64,000 nt of DNA, taken from an uncultured Candidatus Saccharibacteria bacterium. Its GTDB lineage: Bacteria > Patescibacteriota > Minisyncoccia > Phycocordibacterales > PALSA-1337. The notes beneath the pieces were generated by a model, which ran no database searches, was not told the origin of the DNA, and saw nothing but the letters and a program-made list of their open reading frames with translations. A program made the translations under genes and the position numbers. Positions 11,938 to 62,171 of this stretch are shown piece after piece. Positions within the stretch are counted from its first letter, which is position 1, and each line of letters opens with the position of its first letter. Location of the stretch: contig CAZBLC010000001.1 of assembly GCA_964492835.1 (NCBI GenBank), positions 19,596-83,595 on the forward strand, written 5' to 3'.

Positions 11938-12438
11938 TTATGGTATGGATTTTAAAATGTAATCTAGATCGATCACATTACTCTCTATCAAAATAGCATT
12001 TTTGCACCCCGCTCTCATTGCAGCTTCTATATCTGTTTTGCTATCCCCTATCATATAACTTGCCTTAATATCTATATTTAATTCTTCCACTGCTAAATGA
12101 AAAAGACCTGGTTCTGGTTTTCTACATATACACTTTTCGTCTTTATGGTGTGCACAAAAATAGAATGATCTGATGGATGTACCTATTCTATCTAAATCCC
12201 TATTAATCTTTGTGTGGAGTCTTTTAACAAACTCCTTAGACATCTTTCCTTTTGCAATCCCTGCTTGGTTACTTATAACCACAACAACATAGCCTGCGGA
12301 ATTGATCTTTTTTACTAGCTTTTTAGCATTTATATTCCACTTAAATTCGCTTATTTTTTTTACGTAATCATGTTCTGCTGGTTTTTTATTTAGGACTCCA
12401 TCTCTATCCAGAAAAACTGCTCTTATTTTATTATTCAT
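11938..12438 (-). CDS. gmhB: D-glycero-D-manno-heptose 1,7-bisphosphate phosphatase (HAD-IIIA)
   Basis: AVFLDRDGVLN HAD motif I, GmhB-type Cys/His zinc cluster (CAHHKDEKCICRKP), ~166 aa. Confidence 0.8.
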   Translation of the reverse strand: MNNKIRAVFLDRDGVLNKKPAEHDYVKKISEFKWNINAKKLVKKINSAGYVVVVISNQAGIAKGKMSKEFVKRLHTKINRDLDRIGTSIRSFYFCAHHKDEKCICRKPEPGLFHLAVEELNIDIKASYMIGDSKTDIEAAMRAGCKNAILIESNVIDLDYILKSIP

Positions 12439-12447
12439 ATTTCGAAT

Positions 12448-13455
12448 TTATGCTTTTTCTTGATCAAAGACAATTTCAACACCTTTATTATCAAAACCTA
12501 CCTCAATTTCAGCAAAATTATTTAGTCTATTTTTGTTTGCGTAGTCTATGACCGACCTTCTAATATCTTTATGTTTATTTTCTGGAGCTAAAAAAAGCAC
12601 ACAGCCTCCACCACCAGCACCAAGTACTTTTCCTCCCCATGCACCATTTTTTATCCCTAACGAATACAGATCATCTATAGTGCTATTTGAAATTTCATCC
12701 GCAAAAGTCTTTTTTAGAGTCCAGCTTTTGTGTAGAATATCTCCAGCTTTTTTAAAATCTCCCTTTTTAATTGCTTCACTGAAATGTGATACGAGAGAAG
12801 CTATTTCCTTGTATCCATCGATCTTTTTATCGATATTTTTAGTTTGATTGGATAATACACTGGAAGCATCCCTAGTTATTCCAGTAAAGAAAAGCAGAAG
12901 GCTTTTTTCAAATTTATCTTTATTCTTTTTAGATATAGCTAATGGTTCAATAGCTACTTTTCCACTTTTTTTAAATTTATAAATATTGAGTCCTCCATAA
13001 GATGCAGCATACTGATCTTGTTTGCCTATTGGTTCCTTTACAAGATCAATTTCTACCGTGCAGGCCTTTTCAGCCAAGCTCTGCTTATTTATTTTTTTAC
13101 CATTGAGCAGATGGAGTCCCTTAAGCAAGGCTACGGTAAAACTAGAAGATGAACCGAGTCCTGTCCTAGCTGGAATCGACGCGAAGGAGCCAATTTCTAT
13201 GTTATTATTTATTCCAAGAGTCAATAAGATTTCACGAACCCTGTTATGTATCAAATCTTTTGGGTGATCGACTGTTTCAGTTGTTGAATATTTAACTATT
13301 ACTTTATTTACCAAGGGTGTGTGCTTAATAGCCAAGTATACATATTGATTTATAGTAGTTGAAACAACACAGCCTCCGTGTTTCTTATAAAAATCTGGAA
13401 GGTCTGTACCCCCGCCAATAAAACTTATTCGAAGTGGTGCTCTTACTAAAATCAT
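12448..13455 (-). CDS. hddA: GHMP-family sugar kinase, D-glycero-alpha-D-manno-heptose 7-phosphate kinase-like
   Basis: HddA-like N-terminus LRISFIGGGTDLPDF, GHMP ATP-binding motif PARTGLGSSSS, 335 aa. Confidence 0.75.
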   Translation of the reverse strand: MILVRAPLRISFIGGGTDLPDFYKKHGGCVVSTTINQYVYLAIKHTPLVNKVIVKYSTTETVDHPKDLIHNRVREILLTLGINNNIEIGSFASIPARTGLGSSSSFTVALLKGLHLLNGKKINKQSLAEKACTVEIDLVKEPIGKQDQYAASYGGLNIYKFKKSGKVAIEPLAISKKNKDKFEKSLLLFFTGITRDASSVLSNQTKNIDKKIDGYKEIASLVSHFSEAIKKGDFKKAGDILHKSWTLKKTFADEISNSTIDDLYSLGIKNGAWGGKVLGAGGGGCVLFLAPENKHKDIRRSVIDYANKNRLNNFAEIEVGFDNKGVEIVFDQEKA

Positions 13456-14132
13456 TATTTATTATTATTTAATCTATTTATATCCTCTGGTGAAGTGAGT
13501 TGTGTATGCATTTCATCTCCTATAACTGCAAAAACTTTATGATCTTTTGCAAATTTTTTCATTAAATCCGTGAAATAGTATTCGTTTTTTACTTCATGTA
13601 ACTCAGGCTCATAATTAAAAATGTCAGAATTCATAATCATAAACCCGTTTGTAGCAAGGTTCGATGTAGGATTTCTAGGCTTTTCAATTACATCGATTAT
13701 CTGGTTTGTACTATCAATAGTCGCAATACCAACATTTTTTGGATCAGGAACGAAGTAGCACAGCCATGAAAATTCATATTTCAAACAATCTTCTATTTCT
13801 TTTTTTGTTAAAACATCATCTGCATATGAAACTGCAAATCTCTCTCCTTCTTTAATTAATTCCCTTGTTTTAATAAATCCTAGAGCGTTTCCGTTTTTTT
13901 CGCCTTCAACATAAGTAATCTTCCTTCCATAAAGTTCGTTACCACAATACTCTTTTATTTTTTCGCCTAAATATTTTACAACTAAAATAACTTCATCAAT
14001 CTCATTTGGCAAAGAAAGAAATAGATGATCTAGTGCAGTCTTACCTCTATAGACTACAAGTGGCTTTGGTGTGGTTAGTGTTATCGGTCTCATTCTCTGT
14101 CCTTCTCCGGCTGCAAGTATTATAAGCTTCAT
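13455..14132 (-). CDS. hddC: Sugar-1-phosphate nucleotidyltransferase (D-glycero-alpha-D-manno-heptose 1-phosphate guanylyltransferase-like)
   Basis: MKLIILAAGEGQRMRP nucleotidyltransferase motif. Contiguous with hddA and gmhB. Confidence 0.75.
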   Translation of the reverse strand: MKLIILAAGEGQRMRPITLTTPKPLVVYRGKTALDHLFLSLPNEIDEVILVVKYLGEKIKEYCGNELYGRKITYVEGEKNGNALGFIKTRELIKEGERFAVSYADDVLTKKEIEDCLKYEFSWLCYFVPDPKNVGIATIDSTNQIIDVIEKPRNPTSNLATNGFMIMNSDIFNYEPELHEVKNEYYFTDLMKKFAKDHKVFAVIGDEMHTQLTSPEDINRLNNNK

Positions 14133-14156: not shown

Positions 14157-14966
14157 CTATTCTATGGCAACTCCTTTCCTAATAGCAATAAAATTGGCAT
14201 ACATTATCTTTTCGTATTCTGGACAATATTTAACTTTTTCAAGTGTAATAGGCTTCACTTTGTATATGTCATATTCATTTTGAATAAAAAAATCGTAAAT
14301 ATCCTTGAAGAATACTCTTGAGTATATTGCGGCATTACCAAACTCAAATTGAACCATATCAATTGATTTATCTTTAAATAAGTTCTTTGCTCCCTGAAAA
14401 ACAAACAACTCATGGCCTTCTGTATCGACCTTTAATAGATCAATATGCTTTATATTTTTTCGTTTACAATACTCGTCTAGAGTATCTGTTTTTACAACTT
14501 TTTTTTCAATATTATAATTTTCTTGTTCCATATCATAAAATGAATTTAACTCCGGTGAGTCTTTATTTATATACATCTCTCTATTTCCAATAGTCTCTCC
14601 AAGTGCAATATTTTCTAAGTATATATTCTTACTTGTCGAGACATTTTTCATTAACTTACCAAATGTAGTACTGTCTGGTTCAAAGCAATATACTTTGATA
14701 GTATCTCTATAAGAAAGAATATGCTTAACATAGTCTCCAACATTCGCCCCGACATCGAAAACAATTTTTATATCCTTTTTTTTAAACACCAAATCCAATA
14801 AACGATATTCGCCGTTTGTTATCATATTTGAATTGTGTTCCCCTCTACAAAAATCCACATATCGAGATGCTAATGAATAAATGAATGGTCTATATATCGG
14901 TCTTTTATAATTAAAAAGCCCTCTATTGATAAAATATATTATAATTAATTTAATTTTTTTGATCAT
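14157..14966 (-). CDS. FkbM-family methyltransferase
   Basis: Methyltransf_21 motif FDVGANVGDY, 269 aa. Confidence 0.75.
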   Translation of the reverse strand: MIKKIKLIIIYFINRGLFNYKRPIYRPFIYSLASRYVDFCRGEHNSNMITNGEYRLLDLVFKKKDIKIVFDVGANVGDYVKHILSYRDTIKVYCFEPDSTTFGKLMKNVSTSKNIYLENIALGETIGNREMYINKDSPELNSFYDMEQENYNIEKKVVKTDTLDEYCKRKNIKHIDLLKVDTEGHELFVFQGAKNLFKDKSIDMVQFEFGNAAIYSRVFFKDIYDFFIQNEYDIYKVKPITLEKVKYCPEYEKIMYANFIAIRKGVAIE

Positions 14967-14967
14967 G

Positions 14968-16128
14968 TTACCAAAATATTACTTCCGAATTTATATTTTC
15001 TAATATATCTCTTTTTATTTCTTCATTATAGATACCAGCTTTTATAATAACATTTACCTTACCTTTCCCTTTTAGAATCTTAGGGTGTTCTACCATAAGT
15101 TTTGTTCCATAAAGTCTTTTCTTATTTTTCACCTGACTATTATCGAGCAATCCGACTATTTTATCAACTTTTAATCCAAACTGGATTAGTGTTTGTGAAA
15201 AAATGTGTGCTCCGAAGAGATATACCGGTTCGTTTGAACTACCAATCTTCATGTTTAAATCATCAATCATCTCTTTATGATAATTTATATAATCCATAAA
15301 AAGTTTTTTATATTGAATGTATTTATTTGGCAATGTAGATACATCCTCCACAACGTCCGTCTTCTCTGTTGCATAGAAAATACTATGTGGATCTCCATAA
15401 TACTCTTTTTCTAAGATCTTAAAACCCATACTCTGGAGTATATAATCTGTTATTTCTTCAGTAAGAAAGACAGTATGTTCAAAATTTAAGCAATTTGTAA
15501 ACTTCTTATCCAGCATTGGTATCATATTTGGAAAAGTAAATATATGTTTATCACCCCTTTTAAGAAATGAATTTATTTGCTTTAAAAATTTAAATGGTTC
15601 GTATGTATGTTCAAATACATGTGAATGTACGATAGTATCTATTCCTTCATCTAGTTTAAATTTGTCATCAAACCAACCCTTAATTAATTTAATCTTAGGA
15701 TTTGTGATATATTGTGCATTTGGTTCAACAGTTGTCCATTCTACGTCTGGAATTACCGTCCATAGATTCCTAGCTATATGGTCATGTGCGCCACCTATCT
15801 CCAGAACTCTCTTTGGGTTAAATTTTGAAATAAATTTAGCAAAAGCTACATAATGATCCTGCCAAACCTTTCCAACGCCATCATTATGTTGATCTAAATA
15901 CAATATATCAAGGGGTAGGAGCTTCTGAAGCTGTATAAGACCTGTTTCTGGGCATATATCCCAAATCATATCGGACACTATATCTTCATCTTGTGGTTGC
16001 TCTACACAACCCATGAATACTGGAAAATCCTTGAATTTATGTAGAGTTTCTAGATTTTTCTTATTTGATAATAGGCTTTTATCTCTAATGATATAGTTAG
16101 TATTCCTTTTCATAGATTCATTGTACAC
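14968..16128 (-). CDS. SAM-dependent methyltransferase with a C-methyltransferase-type C-terminal domain (sugar C/O-methyltransferase candidate)
   Basis: Central VLEIGGAHDHIARNL SAM motif. The C-terminal region (VYLFGAHIFSQTLIQFGL...VNVIIKAGIYNEE) resembles the C-terminal domain of NDP-hexose C-methyltransferases. Confidence 0.55.
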   Translation of the reverse strand: MYNESMKRNTNYIIRDKSLLSNKKNLETLHKFKDFPVFMGCVEQPQDEDIVSDMIWDICPETGLIQLQKLLPLDILYLDQHNDGVGKVWQDHYVAFAKFISKFNPKRVLEIGGAHDHIARNLWTVIPDVEWTTVEPNAQYITNPKIKLIKGWFDDKFKLDEGIDTIVHSHVFEHTYEPFKFLKQINSFLKRGDKHIFTFPNMIPMLDKKFTNCLNFEHTVFLTEEITDYILQSMGFKILEKEYYGDPHSIFYATEKTDVVEDVSTLPNKYIQYKKLFMDYINYHKEMIDDLNMKIGSSNEPVYLFGAHIFSQTLIQFGLKVDKIVGLLDNSQVKNKKRLYGTKLMVEHPKILKGKGKVNVIIKAGIYNEEIKRDILENINSEVIFW

Positions 16129-16155: not shown

Positions 16156-16872
16156 TTAACCCTCTTTTATTACCTTCTCTGTCTCTATTAGTGCTTGAGG
16201 ATTACCAGTATCTAGCCACGTTTCGAAAGGAACCCATTTGAGCTTTGTGCCCTCTAACAAAAGCTTTTCTATAACAGAGACGTCTCCTAGCGCCTGATTA
16301 TTTCGGTCATTTTTATATAGACTTTCAACAGCCCCCCAAAATTTTTTATAATCATGTATTCCAGTCATGCCAATATGTATAGAATCAAAATCTGTAATTC
16401 CTTTATCATTTACTTTTGCTAAATAACCATCTTTAATTTTATGACTTCTGTATTGCCTTACATCCATCTTTGTTGTCTCTGGGTCAATGACATACCCAAT
16501 AACCCAATCTTCACTTGGTTCTGGTATCTTTTCAACTACAATGGTATCGCAAGCATGAAAAATAAATGGGCACTGTAGATTATCCTTTGCACAGAGCATT
16601 GAATATAGTAGACTACTTCCGTCGCCAATATATTTATCCACTATCACGAACTCAAAATTATAATCTTGGTAATTCTTCAAAAGATAATTTTTTACTTGAT
16701 CCCCATGATATCCAAGTGTAATGACAAATATAGAATCCTTTGGGTATGAATTAAAAATATACTCAATAGTTGGCCTACCATTTATTTTAACTAGTGCTTT
16801 ATTCGTTGTTTTTGTAAGTTCTCCCAGACGTGAACCGGTGCCTGATGTTGTGATAAGTATTTTGTATTCCAT
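16156..16872 (-). CDS. LicC/IspD-like sugar-phosphate (or phospho-alcohol) nucleotidyltransferase
   Basis: N-terminal ILITTSGTGSRLGELTKTTNKALVKINGRPTIEY matches the (A)GxGTRL...PKxL nucleotidyltransferase motif. 238 aa. Confidence 0.65.
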   Translation of the reverse strand: MEYKILITTSGTGSRLGELTKTTNKALVKINGRPTIEYIFNSYPKDSIFVITLGYHGDQVKNYLLKNYQDYNFEFVIVDKYIGDGSSLLYSMLCAKDNLQCPFIFHACDTIVVEKIPEPSEDWVIGYVIDPETTKMDVRQYRSHKIKDGYLAKVNDKGITDFDSIHIGMTGIHDYKKFWGAVESLYKNDRNNQALGDVSVIEKLLLEGTKLKWVPFETWLDTGNPQALIETEKVIKEG

Positions 16873-16910
16873 GTATTTAAATGGTATTACTTAATATGAG
16901 TAATTTATAA

Positions 16911-17477
16911 TTATTTCTTACCTCCCCACTCTCCACCTTTTTCTACTTTCAAATTAAGTAAATCTAACTTTTTAAAAAATTTTTCCATTATGTGCAAGCA
17001 TGCTTCTGCAACCGCTCCATGTCCACCCGAAGTCTTTGTCACGTAGTTCGCATATTCTTTTATTGCTGGAAAAGCATTTGCCGGGGCAATGGAGTATCCA
17101 ACCTTATCAAAAACCATTGCATCAAATATTCCATCACCCATATATACAGTTTCCTCTAGTTTGAATTGACTTCTAATCCAATCGATTCTTTCAAATGTAC
17201 TTACCTGAAAAAGCGGTAATTTCATATCTTGTTCAATTCTTTTCTGTGTAATTGGAAATCCTTTTTTATCGCCAGTTACTGCAATGATATTTAAAAATGG
17301 TTTTACAAGCAGCAATGCGTCATGATCATCTGGACCAAAAATCTTTGCTGACTTACCTTCTAAGGTGTAGTGAAACTGGCCGTCAGTAAAAACTCCATCT
17401 ACATCAAGAATAAAATTTTTTATATTTTTTTTCATATTATTTTTCATTAAGTGCTTTATATAGATTATATTTACCAA
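16911..17477 (-). CDS. KdsC-like HAD-IIIA phosphatase
   Basis: FILDVDGVFTDGQFHY is near-identical in pattern to the KdsC motif (LDVDGVLTDG), with a GDGIFD-type motif III. A likely start at MKKNIKNF removes the overlap with the upstream gene. Confidence 0.65.
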   Translation of the reverse strand: MVNIIYIKHLMKNNMKKNIKNFILDVDGVFTDGQFHYTLEGKSAKIFGPDDHDALLLVKPFLNIIAVTGDKKGFPITQKRIEQDMKLPLFQVSTFERIDWIRSQFKLEETVYMGDGIFDAMVFDKVGYSIAPANAFPAIKEYANYVTKTSGGHGAVAEACLHIMEKFFKKLDLLNLKVEKGGEWGGKK

Positions 17478-18678
17478 AATAAAATAGGAAGATGTTAAAC
17501 GGATAATGATGCAATGGTGACATGTTTAACCAAATAATCGCACGTAATATCTTTATTTTATTCAGATCATTTCCTTTTGAAATAATAAATTCATCAAAAG
17601 TCTTTTCGCACTCAACAAGATGTGGTTTTCTATCTATACTACAAGTCACACTATTACCTTTTATCTTGATGGCAAATCTGTTCTGAGTCACAATATCATG
17701 ATTTACAACCAAATTGTGATATAGCTTTGCCAAATCATAATACATGTCTCCTGTTTTAAGCAAACCACCAAAGTCTTGTCTCCAATCAAGTAATGTATAT
17801 TTATTCTTATTTAAAATTACATTTTCCAAAATAAAATCACCATGGAACTGTGTTTGCACACCATTTGAGAGGTTATCGAAATTAACCTTTGATAGTAGAG
17901 TATTAATGTCTGGAACTTTCTTACCATTGATAGTCATTTTTCTATCTACTATTTTATTTACCGACATGAACTTATTTACTCTTTCCTTTGTCTTTTTTTC
18001 GTAGAAATCTAAACAAATTTTCTTAAATTCCTCGACAGGGACTGTCTTTTTTGATTTCCATAATTTAATACTAGCCCAGTTTAAAAAATTTTTAAAGTTT
18101 TTTGGGTTAGCAACGTTTGAATATGTGTCTCCTTTAATATATGAGTATTTATAGAAATTTTTCTTTATTTCTAAAGTTTCTGGAACCAAACCTCCCAGAA
18201 GCTTTCCTCTTTCAACTCTAGCTAAAATCTTCTTCTCATCAGCGAAAAACTTTATCGCAAAATCTTTGAAGAAAAAAAGGGATTCGTCAACCTTATCCAA
18301 ATTATCAAATTTATCATGAATCATTTCACGAACCTGTAATAAAGACTTCATGTCGTTTACCTTAAAAAAAATATTTGGATATCTTTTATCGATAACTAGA
18401 TCACTGTGGTGGTGAATGTGCGGAAATTGTAAAGAATCACTAGTTTGTTCTGAACCAATAAAAGTAAATTTTATATTAGGATAGACAAGAGATACAAAGT
18501 CCTTTAGGTGGTCGACAAAGTAATCTGTTGAAATGATAAACTCTGTTCCAATTGGGTACATTTCAATTATATAGGAAACTATAGGTTTTTTACCAAGACG
18601 TATTAGAACAGGATTAGTATATTTTGCCAGTTCCTTAAAATCGAATCTTTTTTCATCAATAGGTATATATACTTTCAT
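17437..18678 (-). CDS. Choline/aminoglycoside-kinase-family phosphotransferase (small-molecule kinase)
   Basis: Brenner catalytic motif HGDFILENVIL followed by a DWRQDFGG DFG-like motif. 413 aa. Confidence 0.6.
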   Translation of the reverse strand: MKVYIPIDEKRFDFKELAKYTNPVLIRLGKKPIVSYIIEMYPIGTEFIISTDYFVDHLKDFVSLVYPNIKFTFIGSEQTSDSLQFPHIHHHSDLVIDKRYPNIFFKVNDMKSLLQVREMIHDKFDNLDKVDESLFFFKDFAIKFFADEKKILARVERGKLLGGLVPETLEIKKNFYKYSYIKGDTYSNVANPKNFKNFLNWASIKLWKSKKTVPVEEFKKICLDFYEKKTKERVNKFMSVNKIVDRKMTINGKKVPDINTLLSKVNFDNLSNGVQTQFHGDFILENVILNKNKYTLLDWRQDFGGLLKTGDMYYDLAKLYHNLVVNHDIVTQNRFAIKIKGNSVTCSIDRKPHLVECEKTFDEFIISKGNDLNKIKILRAIIWLNMSPLHHYPFNIFLFYFGKYNLYKALNEK

Positions 18679-18702
18679 GTTATCAAACTATACTAAATCA
18701 GA

Positions 18703-19401
18703 TTACTTATCAAGGATTTTCTTTAATTCAATTATTTTGGTATCAACGTCACCTTCAGGCTTAAATATCGTTGAAGTTCCACAAACAAGCATATTGGCTC
18801 CTCTCTTTATCATCTCTGGGGCAGTATCTGGAGTTACTCCACCATCTATTTCTATTAGCATATTTGGATAGTTCTTCAACTTCCTTTTAAGCTCGGTTAT
18901 CTTATCCATCATTTCAGGAATAAGCTTGTGACCTAGAATTCCAGGATTTATAGCCATAAGCATAACTAGATCAATATCATTTAAAACATAGTCCAAAGTA
19001 GAAAGGCTGGTTGCAGGGTTTAGGGCCACTCCCGCCTTTTTACCAGTTGCTTTTATTAACTTAATTATTCTGTGTAGTTGTGGTGTAGATTCTTCATGAA
19101 CGACAATAATATCAGCTCCAGCATCAGCAAATATCCTTATAGAATTTTCCGGGTTATTAACCATTAAATGTACGTCAATGGGTATATTTGTTATTTTTTT
19201 GATTGCTTGAAGGATTTCAGGATGCAGGCCAAAACGAGGAACGAACTGATTATCCATAACATCAAAATGAATATAATCAATCCCGCCCTTCTCTAATTTT
19301 TCTATTTCGCCCTTAATATCTATCATATCTGCACACACAAGAGATGCTGATAATTTATAGTTTTTTTGAGATTTTTTTTTGTTTATTGTTTTCATATGCA
19401 A
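18703..19401 (-). CDS. rpe: Ribulose-phosphate 3-epimerase-like (TIM barrel)
   Basis: LSASLVCADM...IHFDVMDNQFVPRFG matches Rpe motifs (SILSAD / HxDVMDG.FVPN). 232 aa. Confidence 0.75.
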   Translation of the reverse strand: MHMKTINKKKSQKNYKLSASLVCADMIDIKGEIEKLEKGGIDYIHFDVMDNQFVPRFGLHPEILQAIKKITNIPIDVHLMVNNPENSIRIFADAGADIIVVHEESTPQLHRIIKLIKATGKKAGVALNPATSLSTLDYVLNDIDLVMLMAINPGILGHKLIPEMMDKITELKRKLKNYPNMLIEIDGGVTPDTAPEMIKRGANMLVCGTSTIFKPEGDVDTKIIELKKILDK

Positions 19402-19412
19402 TTAAAGTATAA

Positions 19413-20843
19413 CTACTCCAAATTAGAATGTCTTTCCCACATAGTATCATGTGTCTCACCAAGTTCCTCCATAAGCTTTAGAACGATCGCATCAAAGAAT
19501 ATGGCCAGAGACTGTTCATTTAATGTTGTCATTGGCTGAATAGAAATAAAATTGTCTATCTTTTTGGTCTTTGATGGTGCCTTTATTTCAACAACACAGT
19601 CGGCTAATTTTCCAATTCTAGATTCAGGATTACCAGTTACAGCAGCAATCCTTGCTTGATTTCTTTTAGCAATTAAAGTCAATTCGTAAATGGTCTGTGT
19701 CTCACCTGACCCAGAACAAACTAGAAATAAATCTTCTGCCTTTATGGATGGAACGTTAGCATCACCTAGGATATATGCGTCTATTCCCATATGCTTTAAT
19801 CTCATTACAAACCCCCTTACCGCCATTCCAACTCTACCAGCACCGCAAGCCACTATTTTTTTAGCACTTAAAATATGCTCAGTTAGAACACTCGCCTGTT
19901 TTTCATCAATTTTTAATAGGACAGTTTTTATTTCAGTTAAGATATTCTCCACTCTTTCTATGGTTGTCTGATTCAAGTTATTATTTTTATAGAGCCCGCG
20001 TTCTACAAGTGAATAACCTTTTTCGTTGATATTGTCATCTATACATGCAAATAATTCTTGATTTGGGATAGCATATTTGATAGGTAGAATATCAAATCTC
20101 TCAGGGTTTTTTTCCATTTCAAAAGGAGTCTGAATCGGATATTTTTGTATTTTATTCTTAAATATATTCCTATTAATCTTTTCGAACAATTCTTTATGTC
20201 CTGTTGGCTTAATAATTCTAAGTTTTGTAAGTAGACCAAAAGCCTTGAATATATATTTTTTAAAGAAAATAGGTAGTCTTTTTTTATCGTTTATCCACAT
20301 TTTTTCTAAAAACTCCTTTTTAAAAATTCCACACATTGAAATAAGATAATAAGGATATCCGGTATTTCTTATCATCTGCCATTTATTTTTATCTAAATCC
20401 AAATAACTTATAGCCTTTCTTTTATTTAGATTAATTTTATGACTAAGCTTATTAAAAGACTCAACTGATTTACCAAATAGCCACCAAGAATAACTTATAT
20501 AATCCGCGTCTGCCTTTCTCATCTCTCTAATCACCTCATCTAAAACCTCAGGCTTTGCAATATTCAAATGGTCTTCATTCCAAACAAGTATATAGTCATA
20601 TCTTGCTTCCTTTATCATATCCAAAGCATTTGTAATCCAGCCCCTATTGTCATCTAGTAAACTAAATATAACTAACTTATTTCCAAGCTCATTCTTTAAA
20701 AAATCTAATGCTTCCTCACGAAATGTCCCTCTAACATTTATTAGCCAATTGTCACTAATAAATTTAAAAGACTTAAAGGAGCTTTTAAAATGGTCAAGTC
20801 TAGTGAGTGAATTTATTCTTAGATTTCCAAGTATAGTTATCAT
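19413..20843 (-). CDS. Two-domain protein: N-terminal ~300-aa domain of unknown function fused to a C-terminal SIS sugar-phosphate isomerase domain (GmhA/HxlB/KpsF-like)
   Basis: C-terminal VACGAGRVGMAVRGFVMRLKHMGIDAYILGD...LFLVCSGSGETQ is a canonical SIS fold signature. N-terminal domain unassigned. Confidence 0.6.
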   Translation of the reverse strand: MITILGNLRINSLTRLDHFKSSFKSFKFISDNWLINVRGTFREEALDFLKNELGNKLVIFSLLDDNRGWITNALDMIKEARYDYILVWNEDHLNIAKPEVLDEVIREMRKADADYISYSWWLFGKSVESFNKLSHKINLNKRKAISYLDLDKNKWQMIRNTGYPYYLISMCGIFKKEFLEKMWINDKKRLPIFFKKYIFKAFGLLTKLRIIKPTGHKELFEKINRNIFKNKIQKYPIQTPFEMEKNPERFDILPIKYAIPNQELFACIDDNINEKGYSLVERGLYKNNNLNQTTIERVENILTEIKTVLLKIDEKQASVLTEHILSAKKIVACGAGRVGMAVRGFVMRLKHMGIDAYILGDANVPSIKAEDLFLVCSGSGETQTIYELTLIAKRNQARIAAVTGNPESRIGKLADCVVEIKAPSKTKKIDNFISIQPMTTLNEQSLAIFFDAIVLKLMEELGETHDTMWERHSNLE

Positions 20844-24811: not shown

Positions 24812-25702
24812 TTATATGATCTGAGAATAGTACAACTCTATTATATTATCAAATTCTTTAATTAAGTCCTCTGCTTTTCTATTTAATAAAATGTAATCTT
24901 TCTTTATACAAAGTTCATGTAAAAAATATACAAAAATTAACTTTTTATCTATCTTATAATCAATTCCAACATTAACAAAATATCTCGAAAGTAATTCATA
25001 AGAATCCTTCATTTTATTTCTTACGGTAATATGGTAAATATCAAAACCTGGAATAGCAATATCGCCAAATGTGTCACAATCTACAATCTTAATTTTTTCA
25101 TTATCAATTAGTATATTATCATTCGTAAAGTCACCATGCTGATATATAGACTTTATATCAACCTTGATGTCTGACCACAAATCCTCGTTGTATTTTTTAA
25201 GTATTTCTATATCACCATTATCTCCAGACAATACGCTCACAAGTTTTTCGCCATATGTCTTGTCTAAGATCTGTTCGTTCAATCCACTTGAAATATACTT
25301 TGAAAAAGAAAAATATTTATCAATGGCTTTTTTAAGATCTGCTTCTCTACTTACTTTTACTCCACCACATACAGTTTCAATCGTATATTTAATTAAATTA
25401 TCTTCATGCATACCAATAGCCTTTGGATACATGGATTCAAACTCGCTTCCTTGTACAAGTTTGTTAAGTAGACTTATATTCTTATATCCATCACTTATTC
25501 TATTTATATCTCTAATATTTCTGACTGTTTTTATTATTGCTATAGGTTTTTTGTTTGAATCAAAAACAAAGAGAATTACCTTACACCCGATTCCTCTACC
25601 TGAAATCGGAGTATTGTATTTCATATAACTCAGATCGCCGCCTTTGTATAAATCAGCTTTTTCTAGTTCAGCTTTTATTTGTAAATCTATATTCTTAATC
25701 AT
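24812..25702 (-). CDS. APH/ChoK-family kinase-like phosphotransferase
   Basis: HGDFTNDNILID...IVDCDTFG, i.e. a Brenner motif plus a DxD metal-binding motif. Confidence 0.6.
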   Translation of the reverse strand: MIKNIDLQIKAELEKADLYKGGDLSYMKYNTPISGRGIGCKVILFVFDSNKKPIAIIKTVRNIRDINRISDGYKNISLLNKLVQGSEFESMYPKAIGMHEDNLIKYTIETVCGGVKVSREADLKKAIDKYFSFSKYISSGLNEQILDKTYGEKLVSVLSGDNGDIEILKKYNEDLWSDIKVDIKSIYQHGDFTNDNILIDNEKIKIVDCDTFGDIAIPGFDIYHITVRNKMKDSYELLSRYFVNVGIDYKIDKKLIFVYFLHELCIKKDYILLNRKAEDLIKEFDNIIELYYSQII

Positions 25703-26637
25703 TTTTTTATTATTATTCCAAAACTAAAAAATACAAAACGGTATATTTTTAATAGAATATTAAAATTTGTAAGATATAGAATAATTCTATTTAATACATT
25801 ATTAGATTTTCTAAAAGAATTTATGGCATATTTTAAAATATGCAAACTATTATAGGGAATAATTATTCTTGGTAGATTATATCCTGGATATAGCAAATAA
25901 AAATTGGCTTTATTTTCAAAACCGGAGCGGTGAATAAGATTTTCATAACCTTTTTTTGAATACGTATAAGTTCTATATTCTCCTCTTCCACGTATTTTAT
26001 AGTAAATATTTGCCAAAAATCTAGGCATATAACTCGTATACATGAGCCCTCCGTGATCTGTGGCTCTCAAATACACTAATGCAAAACGGTTCTCAATACC
26101 TATATAAAGATGTCCACCTTTTTTTAGTAATTTCCTACATATTTCTAAACTTTTTATCTGAGCCTCTATTGGGCTACTATATATTTTTGTTAACCCTACC
26201 CACTCCAACACTCCGTTCATTACTATCAAGTCAAAACTATTTTCTTCAAATGGAAGATTATAAACATCTGCAACCATTACATCTATTTTGTCAGATAGAC
26301 CTTCAGCTTCAGCTCTTTTTTTTAAAAATCTCATTCTGGATAATGAATGATCACAGGATACTACTTTATTAACCACTCTAGCTAGAGGTATTGATATTCT
26401 TCCTAGTCCTGCACCAATATCTAAAACCTTAGAATCTCTATTTAATGGTATATAGAATCTCCAATCTGCTCTATCATCATCATAAGTAAAATCTAGTTTC
26501 TTCTGCATAACCTTATCAAAAGAAGAGAAGCCCTTATCTTCAATAAGCTCTATAATATTTATCAGTTCTCTCTCGGGAATTTTACCCCAATAAATATCTT
26601 CAGTTAGAATTGGAATATTGTATTTATTTTCTCTCAT
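25699..26637 (-). CDS. Class I SAM-dependent methyltransferase
   Basis: VLDIGAGLGRISIPLA motif I and the DLIVMNGVLEW post-II region. Confidence 0.7.
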   Translation of the reverse strand: MRENKYNIPILTEDIYWGKIPERELINIIELIEDKGFSSFDKVMQKKLDFTYDDDRADWRFYIPLNRDSKVLDIGAGLGRISIPLARVVNKVVSCDHSLSRMRFLKKRAEAEGLSDKIDVMVADVYNLPFEENSFDLIVMNGVLEWVGLTKIYSSPIEAQIKSLEICRKLLKKGGHLYIGIENRFALVYLRATDHGGLMYTSYMPRFLANIYYKIRGRGEYRTYTYSKKGYENLIHRSGFENKANFYLLYPGYNLPRIIIPYNSLHILKYAINSFRKSNNVLNRIILYLTNFNILLKIYRFVFFSFGIIIKK

Positions 26638-27683: not shown

Positions 27684-29498
27684 TTACTTTATATTAATCT
27701 TATAAGTCCTAGCCCAAATCTGAAAAGTTATTATAGCCCAAAGCATAGTAAAATGATATGAATCCTTTGATAGATGCTTATCATATATATCATTTATCTC
27801 ACCCCAGTTGAATATCTCTGCTGTAGGTTGATAGTATTTGTCACTGAATATATTTCTTACATATTTTGAAATTTCTGGATCTCTAAGCCATTTTGCGCCA
27901 GGAGAAAACCACCCTCGTTTTGGTTGTTTGAACAAATACTTAGGTAAAAGAAGCTTCATAGATTCCTTTAATAAGACTTTGGTATTAAATAAATTTATCT
28001 TTTTATTTAGAGGTATTTTCCTTGAATATTCAAATAATTCCAGATCTAGTAGTGGTACACGTAATTCTAATCCTGACGCCATTGAAGTCTTATCGCTTCT
28101 CATTAAAGATTCATCTACCAACCAACTCTTTTGGTCGGTTTCCATTAGTAATTCTGGACCACTTTTATTTAGATTGTCAAAATATTTTTTTTCAAAAAAC
28201 TTCTTTGACGGTTCCAATTTAAAATCTCTCGAAATAACCCTGAATAATTCTTTATCCTTTTGGAACATAAACAATTCAAATTGGTCTATCCCCTTTTTGG
28301 TATTTAATTTTAGTAATTTACTACTATTAATATATTCTCTAATAAATTTAGGAATAGTCTGATAATAGACTGATAATAGACTTATTTTATACCTCTCATA
28401 TCCACCAAACAATTCATCTCCTCCATCTCCACCAAGAACCACAGCAACTCTTTGCTTTGCAAAACGTGCAAGCTTAATCATTGGTATTATTGTCGGGTTA
28501 GATATTGGTTCGTCCAAATGATAAATAGCCTCTTCTAGCAATGGAATTATTTCATTTTTTTTAACAAAAATCTCGTTATGTTGTGTTTTATATATCTGAG
28601 CTGTGGTACGAGCAAGCAACATATCCATATTAAATTTATCCGCTTGCTCATCTTTATCTAACTCAAAACCAACACTAAAGGTGATTATATCCTTTCTAAA
28701 GGTAGATACTGCTTGTAATACAGTGGTTGAATCTATGCCACCAGAAAGATATATACCTAGTGGTCTGTCAGAAATCAGTTGTCTCTTAACTGATTCATAT
28801 ATCACCTCTCTTAGTTCTTTAGAATTTATAGAATTATTTTCTATATTTTTGTATGGATTATATTTATTAATAGTCATTTTTTTATCTTTAAGATAAAGAT
28901 AATTACTGGGTGGTAGCTTATTTATATTATTAAAAAGCGTAAACGGCTCTGGCACATATAGAATTCTCATATAGTGAGCAAATGCTTCTTTATTTAGAGT
29001 CCTGTCAATAGGGTGCTCAAGAATTGCTTTGATTTCAGATGAAAAAATGAATTTATCACCATCCCAATAATAGTACAATGGCTTTATTCCTATTGGATCC
29101 CTAGCAATAAATAAACTCATTTCGAGATTATCCCAGATAGCAAAAGCAAACATACCGTTAAAGCGACTAACGCATTCCTTACCCCATTTTTTATATGCCG
29201 CAAGAATGACTTCGGTATCGCCAGTAGTTACGAAATCATACTCACTTTTCATCTCATCTTTGATTTCATTAAAATTATATATTTCCCCATTGAAAACAAT
29301 GATAAATCGACCGTCGTCGCTTTTCATCGGCTGGTTTGCTATTGATCTTGTATCAAGAATACTCAGACGATTATGACCTAAAGATATATCGCTATTAAGA
29401 AAAACTCCGGTACCATCTGGTCCTCGGTGTTTTAAACATTGGTTCATTTTCTCAATGTATTCTTTGTTTTCCCAGTTAAATCCATTTATAGCACACAT
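27684..29498 (-). CDS. asnB: Asparagine synthase (glutamine-hydrolysing)-family amidotransferase (WbpS/AsnB-like)
   Basis: N-terminal Ntn Cys MCAINGF...HRGPDGTG and the central PP-loop SGGIDS. Confidence 0.9.
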   Translation of the reverse strand: MCAINGFNWENKEYIEKMNQCLKHRGPDGTGVFLNSDISLGHNRLSILDTRSIANQPMKSDDGRFIIVFNGEIYNFNEIKDEMKSEYDFVTTGDTEVILAAYKKWGKECVSRFNGMFAFAIWDNLEMSLFIARDPIGIKPLYYYWDGDKFIFSSEIKAILEHPIDRTLNKEAFAHYMRILYVPEPFTLFNNINKLPPSNYLYLKDKKMTINKYNPYKNIENNSINSKELREVIYESVKRQLISDRPLGIYLSGGIDSTTVLQAVSTFRKDIITFSVGFELDKDEQADKFNMDMLLARTTAQIYKTQHNEIFVKKNEIIPLLEEAIYHLDEPISNPTIIPMIKLARFAKQRVAVVLGGDGGDELFGGYERYKISLLSVYYQTIPKFIREYINSSKLLKLNTKKGIDQFELFMFQKDKELFRVISRDFKLEPSKKFFEKKYFDNLNKSGPELLMETDQKSWLVDESLMRSDKTSMASGLELRVPLLDLELFEYSRKIPLNKKINLFNTKVLLKESMKLLLPKYLFKQPKRGWFSPGAKWLRDPEISKYVRNIFSDKYYQPTAEIFNWGEINDIYDKHLSKDSYHFTMLWAIITFQIWARTYKINIK

Positions 29499-36816: not shown

Positions 36817-38499
36817 TTACTCTACCTTAAGTACGTTCCTAAGTACATCTTCTGAAACCTCCTTTTTTGTGTCGGTATTTGGAGTTGTAGTCTGCGTTTT
36901 GCCAGCATTCTGAGTGTTTCCTAGTATAGATGCTAATGCATTTTTTAATTCATTTACACGCTCTGGTTGTGCATCCTTCTTATGATTATTCTTTGGTGTA
37001 TTTGAGAGTGAATTCAGTGATACTGAATTAAGTTTAGGCATTGGACTTACAAATGTCTTTGTAGGCTCTGCTACTTTTACAACAGGCTTTTCTACTACAA
37101 CTTGAGGTGCAGGTGGTGCTATTGGCTTTGGTTCTGGAGTAACTGGCTTTGGTACCTCTACAGGTTTAGGTGCTGGAGCAATATCTTTTGGTTTGTCCTT
37201 CATTACTGGCTTTATCGGCATCATCCAGTCATCAATTGCTTTTTCAACATCAACTCTCTTGCTTGCAAACTGTGATCTTGAACTCTCTATAACCCGTTCC
37301 ATACTTGAACTCTCAGGTTTTGCAATTGGAGGCAGGGTAGTTGCAGAGAATGGCGCTGAACTTACTCCGTCTATCATGAGTTTTAAGTATATTTGATATA
37401 TACCCAAGTTAACTATATCTTCTGCTGTAAATTGTGGTGAGAATTCTTTCTCGAGTACTTCAGCATCAAATGCTCCTACACGGAATACAATCATTGTTCC
37501 AACGTTACCGAATACAGCATTACGTACTTCTTCTTCCATTTGTTCGATGTACTGGTGAGCAATTGTAAGATTAAGTTTGTATTTTCTAGCCTCTGAAAGA
37601 ATATCTGCAAATGATTCATTGGCGAATGACTGGAACTCGTCTACAAAGAGATAGAAGTTAGGGAGTGTCTTAAGCACACGATCTGGTACGTCTGCGCGAG
37701 ATAGCGCAGCTAGATATATTTTTGTAATTATCATTCCTCCTAATAGGTTTGCATTTGATTCTCCAATTCTTCCTTTTGATAGGTTAACGATAAAAATCTT
37801 ACCTTCATCCATCATCTTACGAATATTGAATGATGATTTTGGCTGCCCTATCATGTTTCGTATTAGCGCATTGGCTGTGAACTGTCCGATCTTGTTTTGT
37901 ATCGCTGGCACTGCTTCTGCAGCCATTCTTTCTGTATAGTTTGCAAACTCTTGTACCCAGAATGCTTTAACTGATGAATCTGTGACATGAGAGATCACAA
38001 GCTTTCTATATTCTTTGTCTGAAAGCATACGATTTACTCCAAGTAGAGTTGCATCTGGATATTCAAGTAGAGCAAGTAGGGTGTTTGTAAGGATATATTC
38101 CATACGAGCTGACCAAGCATCTTGCCAGATCTTCTTGAATGTACTCATTAGTCCAGATACTACTAGATGTCTTTTGTCTGGGTCTACGTTCTCAAGTACG
38201 TTAAAGGATATTGGATAGTCCATATCGAATGGAGCAAAATATACTACATCCTTCTGTCTATGTTCTGGTACATATTCTAGCAGTAGCTCTGCAGTCTTTC
38301 CGTGAGGATCAATGAATGCCATTCCTTCCCCATTCTTAATATCCTGAACAGCCATGTTCTCAAGTACAGTTGATTTTCCCATACCTGTCTTTCCGATAAC
38401 GTACACATGCTTAGTCCTATCTTTTGCTTTAATACCAAAAGTTACCTTTTTGTTTCTAGAGTCTGTCTGTCCAAAATATGTTATTTTTTCGTCGTTCAT
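36817..38499 (-). CDS. Soluble P-loop NTPase of the TraG/VirD4/HerA-FtsK (DUF87-like) superfamily with a Pro/Lys/Val-rich C-terminal tail
   Basis: Walker A VIGKTGMGKST and Walker B LFVDEF. TraG-D_C-like IAHQYIEQ region. No N-terminal TM helices. C-terminal low-complexity PAPKPVEVPKPVTPEPKPIAPPAPQVVVEKPVVKV. Confidence 0.6.
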   Translation of the reverse strand: MNDEKITYFGQTDSRNKKVTFGIKAKDRTKHVYVIGKTGMGKSTVLENMAVQDIKNGEGMAFIDPHGKTAELLLEYVPEHRQKDVVYFAPFDMDYPISFNVLENVDPDKRHLVVSGLMSTFKKIWQDAWSARMEYILTNTLLALLEYPDATLLGVNRMLSDKEYRKLVISHVTDSSVKAFWVQEFANYTERMAAEAVPAIQNKIGQFTANALIRNMIGQPKSSFNIRKMMDEGKIFIVNLSKGRIGESNANLLGGMIITKIYLAALSRADVPDRVLKTLPNFYLFVDEFQSFANESFADILSEARKYKLNLTIAHQYIEQMEEEVRNAVFGNVGTMIVFRVGAFDAEVLEKEFSPQFTAEDIVNLGIYQIYLKLMIDGVSSAPFSATTLPPIAKPESSSMERVIESSRSQFASKRVDVEKAIDDWMMPIKPVMKDKPKDIAPAPKPVEVPKPVTPEPKPIAPPAPQVVVEKPVVKVAEPTKTFVSPMPKLNSVSLNSLSNTPKNNHKKDAQPERVNELKNALASILGNTQNAGKTQTTTPNTDTKKEVSEDVLRNVLKVE

Positions 38500-47767: not shown

Positions 47768-47854
47768 CGGAAAGAGCGAGATTCGAACTCGCGGTTCCAA
47801 TTAAGGAACGGCGGTTTAGTAAACCGCTGGTTTAAACCACTCACCCATCTTTCC
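47768..47854 (-). tRNA. Ser-type (class II, long variable arm, G73) tRNA; anticodon loop reads UUACUAA, apparent anticodon ACU
   Basis: Manual fold: acceptor GGAAAGA/TCTTTCC, 3-bp D-stem, anticodon stem GCGGT/ACCGC, variable stem-loop GTTCC-TTAATT-GGAAC, T-arm GCGAG-TTCGAAT-CTCGC. CCA not encoded. Confidence 0.7.
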
Positions 47855-58512: not shown

Positions 58513-58588
58513 TGGTGCGCGCGCCAGGGGTCGAACCTGGGACCGCTCGAGTATAAGTCGAATGCTCTACCAACTGAGCTACGCGCGC
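58513..58588 (-). tRNA. tRNA with anticodon UAU (Ile-decoding AUA by anticodon), CCA encoded
   Basis: Manual fold: acceptor GCGCGCG/CGCGCGC, D-arm GCTC-AGTTGGTA-GAGC, anticodon stem TTCGA/TCGAG, loop CTTATAC, T-arm CCAGG-TTCGACC-CCTGG, A73, CCA. Confidence 0.75.
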
Positions 58589-61752: not shown

Positions 61753-62171
61753 GGGGATGAAAGGCCTCGACAGTTGAGGTACTCAATATTGTGCATTGTA
61801 GAGCTCCGTCACCTCTTTAAAATGACGGAAATGTTAGATGCTAAATCAGCTATAACAAAGGCGAAGTCTACTGTGTCTCCATATTTTGGAGCTAATAGCT
61901 TTGCTTTCGCTTACGCAACAGTTTAATACTGTTCCCTAAACGACGTTCTACACTAGGTTTCGAAACTAGTGTTAGAGTGATATAACCTTCGAATTGGATT
62001 GTATTCACTTCCCTGCTTACAATCTGAAACTCTGGGAATCGCTTACATATATTTTGTTTACTTTATAGTATGTAAGTTAAAAGAGGGCGACCTCGCTAAA
62101 GTTTTCTATACAATGTAGATCCAATATTAGATTTCATCTGCACCCGAGTTCGATTCTCGGCATCTCCACCA
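61753..62171 (+). ncRNA. ssrA: Transfer-messenger RNA (tmRNA, ssrA)
   Basis: 5' GGGGATG pairs with 3' CATCTCC-ACCA. tRNA-like T-arm GAGTTCGATTCTC. Internal ORF ending in a TAA within hairpin ACAGT-TTAAT-ACTGT. Confidence 0.85.

Follow-up and report, generated by a model that had tools for sequence, protein, structure and literature searches.

A conserved gene cassette proposed to make and transfer a nucleotide-activated rare sugar in a Saccharibacteria glycan operon

The DNA analysed here is a stretch of 64,000 nucleotides from an uncultured Candidatus Saccharibacteria bacterium (assembly GCA_964492835.1, contig CAZBLC010000001.1, positions 19,596 to 83,595), which is referred to below as the window. 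Our subject is a module of sugar-phosphate enzymes encoded on its minus strand by five consecutive open reading frames (ORFs), 16156-16872, 16911-17477, 17437-18678, 18703-19401 and 19413-20843. These genes, which had been proposed in a reading of the sequence only, are real, and the same set recurs in dozens of species. The ORFs are co-directional and closely packed, with intergenic gaps of 11-38 nt. The kinase and the HAD phosphatase genes overlap nominally by 41 nt, which becomes 11 nt or zero if the HAD gene starts at ATG 17447 or 17435. A scan of the module found no terminator-like sites on its coding strand, and promoter-like sites were not more frequent in it than in shuffled sequences. 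The window is AT-rich, its GC content being about 30-33% across the region. The module is embedded in a glycan operon of about 27 kb (9152-36812, minus strand), which encodes about ten GT4-type and one GT2 glycosyltransferase, a polysaccharide deacetylase, an SDR epimerase, an AsnB-like amidotransferase, a UDP-glucose-dehydrogenase-like protein and several methyltransferases; a Wzx-like gene adjoins the operon in divergent orientation. The closest relatives of the module proteins are found in Saccharibacteria and other Patescibacteria. The earlier assignment of a nucleotidyltransferase (NTase), a HAD phosphatase, a kinase, an Rpe-like epimerase and a SIS domain was confirmed in every case, and inspection of the sequences showed intact catalytic motifs in all five. 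The core of the module thus stood as proposed, while its boundary had to be moved: the functional unit reaches downstream to the methyltransferase at 14968-16128, and probably also takes in the gene at 14157-14966.

The stand-alone LicC-like NTase (16156-16872) matched PF00483 with an E-value of 2e-6 and carries an intact GxGxRL loop; no other NTase of the module is intact. Its best matches in the PDB were LicC (1jyk, E 2e-7) and inositol-1-phosphate cytidylyltransferase (2xme, E 5e-7), glucose-1-phosphate cytidylyltransferase being also near; the HddC model gave 30 bits against a cut-off of 300. The protein is 44.6% identical to the fused NTase domain of the related locus L004 and 57% identical to the separate NTase of the same locus, and it is a paralog of the NTase domain that is normally fused to the kinase. 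In the window the kinase gene encodes a 413-aa protein, in which the decayed N-terminal half of a LicC-like NTase domain (aa 1 to about 112; 18343-18678) precedes a small-molecule kinase domain of the ChoK/APH fold (17437-18342), putatively acting on a sugar or a sugar phosphate. The best fold matches of this domain were choline kinases and LicA, while a phmmer search of the PDB gave a spurious His-tag match only. The kinase family comprises more than 1400 hits (protein clusters), and in its canonical form of about 525 aa a LicC-like NTase domain is followed by the kinase; P0183 is even a single NTase-kinase-HAD polypeptide. The ChoK/APH assignment of the earlier reading therefore holds, while the gene itself is best described as a degenerate NTase-kinase fusion, of which the NTase remnant is presumed inactive. 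In the close relative L007 an intact fusion occurs without a separate NTase, whereas L006 and the window have the decayed fusion together with a separate NTase, which evidently took over the function of the lost domain. In L005 (12121-13560), another close relative from the Saccharibacteria, the NTase-kinase is split into ORFs of 354 and 171 aa, where a frameshift, a pseudogene or an assembly error is possible.

The HAD protein (16911-17447, its start being probably ATG 17447 or 17435) belongs to the KdsC/YrbI subfamily of sugar-phosphate phosphatases. It matched TIGR01670 with E 2e-20 and 73 bits, under the cut-off of 107 bits, and reached 72 bits with the other KdsC model, the cut-off of which is 208. 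KdsC structures in the PDB were matched with E-values between 1e-18 and 1e-14, and the sequence shows both the DxDGV and the GDGxxD motif.

The gene at 19413-20843 encodes a fusion protein of 476 aa. Its 184 C-terminal residues (aa 293-476; 19413-19967) form a SIS domain, which scored 189.1 bits with TIGR03127, the model for HxlB or 6-phospho-3-hexuloisomerase (PHI), against a cut-off of 160, and aligned over the full length with the YckF/HxlB protein of B. subtilis (1m3s, E 1.3e-39). The GmhA models gave E-values of 2e-3 to 3e-3 and KdsD 1.6e-6, and CBS domains are absent. Since the HxlB threshold was passed and YckF was matched in its full length, the SIS domain can be refined to the PHI type and is not of the KdsD or GmhA type. 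The adjacent gene (18703-19401) encodes a member of the ribulose-phosphate 3-epimerase family, Rpe (PF00834, E 2e-65; TIGR01163, 224.8 bits against a cut-off of 212.6), which scored 180.5 bits with the model of the allulose-6-phosphate epimerase AlsE (cut-off 271) and matched the HxlA models with an E-value of 1e-4 only. The HFDVMD, DVHLMV and IEIDGG motifs are present, with the catalytic Asp/His metal site. When the HPS-PGI-PHI fusions P0078 and P0079 were used as tblastn queries, a search of limited sensitivity, no match to 3-hexulose-6-phosphate synthase (HPS) was detected beyond the PHI domain in the window or in the related loci L001-L040. Because both proteins look like genuine orthologs and no HPS is detectable, the action of Rpe on the product of PHI is the only direct chemical link between them.

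The N-terminal part of the fusion (aa 1-292; 19968-20843), here called domain X, had earlier been regarded as a novel domain of about 300 aa that could not be placed. This view did not hold: X, of about 290 aa, has a Rossmann-like fold of the GT-A type, and is not a new fold. No Pfam or NCBIfam model exists for it, and sequence searches against the PDB gave no match. After beta-4, where a DXD motif would stand, the family has an invariant W-N-E-D-H. The Pfam GT2 model reached 21.5 bits on X, with a cut-off of 23.3, and was detected in 6 of 40 family members, while NTP_transferase was never detected among the 40; in fold closeness the NTases are almost equal to the glycosyltransferases. An exhaustive profile search collected 454 representative clusters of X, the distant ones being fused to GT2, methyltransferase and B12/radical-SAM domains. 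Because such fusions are typical of multidomain glycan-assembly enzymes and because of the GT2 signal, X is read as a glycosyltransferase of an undescribed family, and we assume that it is dedicated to transferring the sugar of the cassette. In the giant composite proteins P0384 (1611 aa), P0370, P0355 and P0410, X is joined either to a set of B12-binding/radical-SAM, GT2 and two methyltransferase domains or to a single FkbM or GT2 domain. An HPS-like function of X, as might be imagined from the known HPS-PHI fusions, is ruled out by the GT-A fold, by the fusions to cupin, GT2 and methyltransferase domains and by the presence of X in cassettes lacking PHI. In many loci a cupin is fused to X; it is degenerate, having lost the metal-binding and catalytic motifs of phosphomannose isomerase (PMI). 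This loss, together with the absence of this cupin from the window, rules it out as a missing aldose-ketose isomerase.

The methyltransferase at 14968-16128, named here MT386 and counted as the sixth member of the cassette, is a three-domain homolog of the NDP-sugar methyltransferases TcaB9 and MtmC. The database copy starts five codons downstream, at 16113. It matched PF13489 and PF08484, the latter being present in many members of its family of more than 1700 protein clusters. The family profile matched MtmC (4rv9, E 4e-8) and TcaB9 (3ndi, E 1.4e-5) over positions 54-366, with about 310 residues aligned. The invariant E217-H218 align with the E225-H226 dyad of MtmC, and H174 with H182; following the TcaB9 literature, we take the dyad and the histidine to serve in catalysis or hexose binding. 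The family has not kept the N-terminal Cys4 zinc site, C41 and C59 being the only conserved cysteines in that region, and Tyr222 of TcaB9 is replaced by Asn. The alignment therefore points to an enzyme that would bind a nucleotide-linked sugar. A 4,6-dehydratase, which would be the source of a 4-keto sugar, was absent from the cassettes. The next gene (14157-14966) encodes an FkbM-family protein (PF05050, E 1e-18; TIGR01444, E 3e-28), a probable accessory O-methyltransferase. A second methyltransferase of the FkbM, TylF or NanM-like kind stands inside or beside 13 related cassettes, this slot being variable.

Co-occurrence was followed in a scan seeded with the alignment of X, in which one genome per species was kept. 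This gave 36 loci, from Saccharibacteria and many other Patescibacteria, two Nanoarchaeota, an Arcobacter, two Planctomycetales, gammaproteobacterial metagenome-assembled genomes, the complete genome of a Ca. Pseudothioglobus and a single-cell genome of the Pelagibacteraceae. Their ORFs were called de novo and compared with the proteins of the window and with reference proteins from the first loci, and co-inheritance was counted in the 26 X-seeded loci of at least 15 kb. The NTase-kinase was present in 26/26, the KdsC-like HAD in 25/26 and the homolog of MT386 in 20/26 (46-70% identity); an extra stand-alone NTase was found in 14/26. Each of these loci has one pair of feeder enzymes, either PHI and Rpe (10/26) or a TIM-barrel protein of the GatZ/KbaZ family with a small PMI-like cupin (16/26). 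The two pairs are mutually exclusive and half a pair was never seen. Over all X-seeded related loci, PHI with Rpe was counted 14 times and GatZ with cupin 18 times. The smallest cassettes have six genes in about 5.4 kb, namely HAD-PHI-Rpe-NTKin-MT-X in L025 and HAD-GatZ-cupin-NTKin-MT-X in L027 (NTKin, NTase-kinase), and their gene orders are identical save for the swapped feeder pair. Fusion of X to PHI occurs in seven X-seeded related loci as well as in the window, and triple X-cupin-PHI fusions also exist. Recurrence across dozens of species makes a chance clustering of these genes quite implausible.

In a reverse test four NTase-kinase proteins were used as seeds, which gave the loci L041-L044. 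L041 contains a full cassette. In L042 and L044 the order PHI-Rpe-NTKin-HAD is followed by a conserved 432-aa GT-B-like protein, and both X and MT386 are missing; L043 has GatZ-NTase-NTKin-HAD, again without X or MT386. It follows from these loci that the invariant core consists of the feeder pair, the NTase-kinase and the HAD, while X and MT386 are a frequent but replaceable pair for transfer and tailoring. The exchange of X for the GT-B-like protein is the behaviour expected of a replaceable transferase. The 432-aa protein itself (L042, 12878-14173; L044, 12027-13322) has only a weak match, to Glyco_trans_1_2, and may take the place of X as transferase of the same sugar. All 17 loci of the PHI/Rpe type (14 X-seeded and 3 kinase-seeded) have PHI and Rpe as direct neighbours, and every locus of sufficient length also shows the NTase-kinase and the HAD beside them. 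Thus rpe is not an unrelated neighbour, and the co-inheritance expected if the module were a functional unit was found.

The relation of the feeder types was followed in bootstrapped neighbour-joining trees (100 replicates). The kinase domains of the PHI/Rpe cassettes (type A) and of the cupin113/GatZ331 cassettes (B1) were intermixed, neither being monophyletic in any of the 100 replicates, while those of the cupin132/GatZ339 cassettes (B2) formed a separate clade in 100/100 (A+B1 vs B2). The trees of MT386, HAD and X showed no sorting by feeder type. The intermixing of the kinase domains suggests that the kinase receives an identical or closely similar substrate from PHI with Rpe and from one of the GatZ/cupin subtypes.

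Some cassettes have further members. In the Pelagibacteraceae locus L031 (2821-11139), GmhA-like and GmhB-like genes replace PHI/Rpe and the KdsC-like HAD; X, MT386 and the NTase-kinase are accompanied there by an AroE-like dehydrogenase and a PMI-like cupin of 272 aa. Homologs of the AroE-type shikimate dehydrogenase (TIGR00507, 221 bits, above the cut-off) were seen in L003 (11747-12574) and also in L012, L018, L026 and L039, in cupin132/GatZ339 cassettes of organisms which are not expected to make aromatic amino acids, and they are presumably sugar oxidoreductases; the AroE-like gene is limited to some B2 cassettes and L031. In L001 (7931-9998), and also in L012, L018 and the P0026 locus, the cassette follows directly after Wzm/Wzt genes, and the Wzt carries a Wzt_C domain, which binds glycan ends. 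This hints that the sugar of the cassette may be a chain-terminal cap in those organisms; the window has a Wzx-like gene instead.

On balance we think it probable, with a good deal of room for doubt, that the cassette produces a rare sugar in nucleotide-activated form and adds it to the glycan which the surrounding operon builds. The gene set, the folds and motifs of its proteins, their co-inheritance and the alternative feeder pairs are observed; from these we infer every substrate, the order of the steps and the nucleotide, in a scheme of five stages. PHI and Rpe would remodel a ketose phosphate from central metabolism, most simply fructose-6-phosphate. The APH-fold kinase and the KdsC-type phosphatase would then relocate the phosphate, either in this order, passing through a bisphosphate as the nucleotide pathways of heptoses and octoses do, or with the phosphatase acting before the kinase. 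In the third stage the LicC-like NTase would couple the sugar phosphate to a nucleoside monophosphate, probably CMP; CDP is a weak favourite because of the nearest relatives of the NTase. MT386 and the FkbM O-methyltransferase would methylate the nucleotide-linked sugar, and the GT-A domain fused to PHI would transfer it to the growing glycan. The fusions X-PHI, X-cupin-PHI, NTase-kinase and NTase-kinase-HAD tie these steps together and speak for the scheme.

Among the possible sugars we favour the tagatose series, that is, a C4-epimerised hexose, which would require near-native chemistry from every enzyme; this choice is tentative and may well prove wrong. Fructose-6-phosphate would be converted by PHI to 3-hexulose-6-phosphate, this by Rpe to its C4 epimer, and the epimer by PHI in the reverse direction to tagatose-6-phosphate. 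Rpe would thereby invert the carbon next to the keto group (C4), which is as far from the phosphate as C3 is in ribulose-5-phosphate. The net C4 epimerisation would be the same as that expected of the GatZ/KbaZ proteins in the sister cassettes, GatZ and KbaZ having been demonstrated experimentally to be C4 epimerases that convert fructose-6-phosphate to tagatose-6-phosphate (PMC11907403). Alternatively the product may belong to the psicose, allose or altrose series, with Rpe as an AlsE-like 3-epimerase and the SIS domain as an aldose-ketose isomerase, it may be arabinose-5-phosphate or another pentose, or it may be a 3-hexulose, which would supply the carbonyl for a C-methyltransferase. The fullest form of the proposal, in which PHI and Rpe were recruited as a two-enzyme C4 epimerase working via 3-hexulose-6-phosphate and the resulting novel nucleotide sugar is C-methylated by the TcaB9-like enzyme, seems unlikely to us. 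If it is true, it would mean a new branched-chain or ketose-derived surface sugar in bacteria of the candidate phyla radiation (CPR), DPANN archaea and some marine Proteobacteria.

Several points weigh against the five-stage scheme. Its substrates and products are all deduced. PHI and Rpe score as ordinary orthologs of central metabolism, so a dedicated new specificity is an assumption read into these sequences. X and MT386 are missing from three of the four kinase-seeded loci, and the trees are simple neighbour-joining ones. The PMI-like cupin of the sister cassettes has catalytically intact motifs and no counterpart in the window under the tagatose version, and consequently the two feeder pairs may not be strictly equivalent. 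Finally, C-methylation as a rule requires a keto sugar, which a nucleotide linked through a glycosyl-1-phosphate would not provide; MT386 may instead methylate oxygen, or the nucleotide may be linked at a non-anomeric position.

The last point leads to an alternative that follows the phospho-alcohol logic of LicA/LicC or TarI-like enzymes. Here a CDP-sugar or CDP-ketose would be formed via a non-anomeric phosphate, for example a CDP-1- or CDP-6-ketose, MT386 would C-methylate the open-chain form, and X would transfer a sugar phosphate to give a phosphodiester as in teichoic acids. The closest solved relatives of the NTase, LicC 1jyk and the inositol-1-phosphate enzyme 2xme, agree with this, as do the choline kinases and LicA among the fold matches of the kinase and the Glu-His dyad of MT386, C-methylation requiring a free carbonyl; there is also a precedent in the direct cytidylylation of a ketose-6-phosphate to open-chain CDP-6-D-fructose (PMC10918830). 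Such a direct reaction, however, would make the conserved kinase and phosphatase needless, GT-A-fold enzymes are not the usual CDP-alcohol phosphotransferases, no LicD, TagF or fukutin-like transferase and no reductase were found among the operon genes, and the GmhA/GmhB-like partners in L031 are typical of anomeric activation. We therefore consider this alternative improbable, if the most serious one. Still less probable is that Rpe and PHI are merely housekeeping enzymes of the pentose-phosphate or reverse ribulose monophosphate (RuMP) pathway, so that the kinase, phosphatase and NTase alone would activate another sugar in a salvage-type manner. Both proteins pass or approach the curated thresholds of ordinary Rpe and HxlB, and Patescibacteria with small genomes often scatter their central-metabolism genes. 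This would leave unexplained the PHI-Rpe adjacency in 17/17 loci, the position of the pair beside the NTase-kinase and HAD in all loci of sufficient length, the covalent X-PHI fusion in seven X-seeded loci besides the window, the replacement of PHI and Rpe as a unit by GatZ-like protein and cupin at the same position in the gene order, and the lack of a detectable HPS partner for PHI in the window and L001-L040.

The near equality of NTases and glycosyltransferases in fold closeness raises the question whether X could be a highly divergent sugar-1-phosphate nucleotidyltransferase, in which case X with its cupin would be a remote ManC-type GDP-mannose pyrophosphorylase/PMI and the LicC-like NTase or NTases would serve a second activation. 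We hold this to be quite unlikely. X lacks the GxGxR(L) loop for NTP binding and its invariant residues differ, its Pfam likeness is to GT2 (6/40 members) and never to NTP_transferase, its distant members are fused to GT2 and methyltransferase domains, the attached cupin is without the PMI metal and catalytic motifs, and a GT-B-like protein takes its place in L042 and L044. The product might also be a soluble glycoside or compatible solute, X glycosylating the sugar phosphate of the fused isomerase and the HAD removing the phosphate, as in glucosyl- or mannosyl-3-phosphoglycerate synthesis. A GT-A protein with a dedicated phosphatase, and the X-isomerase fusion, do resemble the general logic of GpgS/GpgP and MpgS/MpgP. 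The universal NTase-kinase would then have no role, the cassettes lie in glycan-assembly operons with Wzx or Wzm/Wzt and many glycosyltransferases, and the relatives of X are fused to GT2 domains of the polymer type; we regard this explanation as very improbable.

Other features of the window were noted. Directly downstream of the cassette, a set of genes for an HddC-like NTase, an HddA-like GHMP kinase (12448-13455) and a GmhB-like phosphatase (11938-12438), that is, a GDP-heptose module, occupies 11938-14132 on the minus strand. A tblastn search with an E. coli GmhA sequence found no GmhA-like isomerase in the 64-kb window; the same query matched GmhA-like genes in L014, L021, L026 and L031, and in L014, L021 and L026 the gene adjoins Hdd genes. 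That PHI acts as the GmhA of the neighbouring HddA, HddC and GmhB is unsupported, since related loci that bear Hdd genes also encode a GmhA, and since the cassette supplies a kinase, a phosphatase and an NTase itself. At 24812-26637 (minus strand) a protein of 296 aa, in which an APH/kinase signature is weakly detected (E 9e-4), is encoded directly upstream of a class I methyltransferase (25699-26637), a pair that recalls the chain terminators of the WbdD type. The AsnB-like glutamine amidotransferase of the operon (604 aa; 27684-29498, minus strand) has homologs that flank the L041 and L042 cassettes, a sign that an amidated sugar may be a conserved constituent of these glycans. A coupling ATPase of type IV systems, similar to TraG/VirD4/TrwB, is encoded at 36817-38499 (minus strand), immediately upstream of the first glycosyltransferase gene of the operon. 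Rfam models matched a tmRNA gene (110 bits) and two tRNA genes, at 61753-62171 (plus strand), 58516-58588 (minus strand) and 47768-47854 (minus strand).

To our knowledge, the chemistry of the surface glycans of host-attached Patescibacteria (CPR) and DPANN cells is essentially uncharted, and few sugar-specific gene sets are as widespread in their glycan loci as this cassette. It is also present in SUP05-type Gammaproteobacteria, Pelagibacteraceae, Arcobacter and Planctomycetes. If the proposed scheme is true, it would be a third, enzymatically independent isomerase-kinase-phosphatase-NTase route to nucleotide sugars; PHI and Rpe would have a biosynthetic task beyond central metabolism, and a new family of GT-A glycosyltransferases and probably a new methylated rare sugar would be defined.

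Full-text literature searches found no published description of this combination of genes and gave only the precedents of the GatZ C4 epimerase and of CDP-6-fructose, and a search for orthology to characterised pathways ended in mismatches with the Kdo, CDP-ribitol, LicABCD, RuMP and heptose systems alike. The sequence-only reading had suggested an undescribed NDP-activated donor, a view upheld to the extent that no pathway matches and the genes are co-inherited; the class of the product (pentose, ketose or aldose) stays inferred. Its exclusion of three known pathways was borne out. In case of the Kdo pathway (KdsD-KdsA-KdsC-KdsB), the HAD scores below the KdsC cut-offs, the SIS domain is of the PHI type and has no CBS domains, and no KdsA or KdsB domain was found in the ~27-kb operon. 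LicA/LicC, and the LicCA fusion of Treponema denticola, share with the cassette a kinase of the choline-kinase fold and a LicC-like cytidylyltransferase, often fused in NTase-kinase order; for LicABCD phosphocholine synthesis, however, no LicB transporter or LicD domain was found in the operon, and the partners are sugar-phosphate enzymes in all related loci. The routes to CDP-6-D-fructose and CDP-6-D-glucitol (C. jejuni HS:5; PMC10918830), CDP-ribitol and CDP-arabinitol also activate a ketose phosphate of central metabolism for a surface glycan. Those routes need only an NTase and a reductase, whereas the cassette has a kinase, a phosphatase, an isomerase and an epimerase, and no reductase of the TarJ, AbpB or HS5.17 type was found in the module or in L025 and L027.

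The RuMP enzymes HxlA/HxlB and the archaeal HPS-PHI fusions resemble the window protein in that its PHI passes the HxlB threshold and has an N-terminal fusion partner. This partner is a GT-A domain and not an HPS of the orotidine-monophosphate-decarboxylase fold, the context is glycan assembly, and membership was rejected as an HPS was detected neither in the window nor in L001-L040. The GatZ/KbaZ-family proteins occupy in the sister cassettes exactly the place of PHI and Rpe in the window, and the two pairs would be equivalent; no GatZ-like gene is present in the window, and the likeness of the cassette proteins to GatZ is confined to some 100 N-terminal residues (E about 2e-8). In AmgK/MurU (MurNAc/GlcNAc) and NahK, too, an anomeric sugar kinase of the APH fold is paired with a small NTase, and an NDP-sugar is formed without a mutase, while the cassette departs from AmgK/MurU in at least one defining feature. 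With the 3-C-methyltransferases of NDP-4-keto-sugars, TcaB9, MtmC and TylC3, MT386 shares the S-adenosylmethionine domain, the C-terminal nucleotide-sugar domain, the Glu-His dyad and one further His; it differs by the remoteness of the similarity (E 4e-8), the loss of the Cys4 zinc site and the lack of a 4,6-dehydratase in the cassettes.

The closest parallel is found in the nucleotide-heptose and -octose pathways. The ADP-heptose route proceeds by GmhA-HldE-GmhB-HldE, HldE being a kinase-NTase fusion, and the GDP-octose route of lincomycin synthesis (LmbN/LmbP/LmbK/LmbO) follows the same four-function logic. For the GDP-D-glycero-alpha-D-manno-heptose route, GmhA-HddA-GmhB-HddC, the roles of the genes are summarised in PMC10918830. 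These pathways and the cassette have in common a ketose-phosphate isomerase, a kinase, a distal phosphatase and an NTase, with a kinase-NTase fusion as in HldE, and the GmhA-like and GmhB-like genes in L031 support the likeness in logic. The enzymes themselves are different: a PHI-type SIS domain or a PMI-like cupin stands in the place of GmhA, an APH/ChoK kinase in that of the GHMP (HddA) or PfkB (HldE) kinase, and a KdsC-type HAD in that of GmhB, which is of the HAD-IIIA, histidinol-phosphatase-like kind; the NTase is LicC-like, and an epimerase (Rpe or GatZ-like), a TcaB9-like methyltransferase and a dedicated GT-A protein are added. The recruitment of PHI and Rpe, the APH-fold kinase-NTase fusion, the KdsC-type phosphatase, the TcaB9-like methyltransferase and the undescribed GT-A family are the unusual features of the cassette, which is of the nucleotide-sugar biosynthesis-and-transfer type and works like the heptose and octose nucleotide pathways while standing outside the Kdo, heptose, LicABCD, AmgK/MurU, RuMP and CDP-alditol systems.

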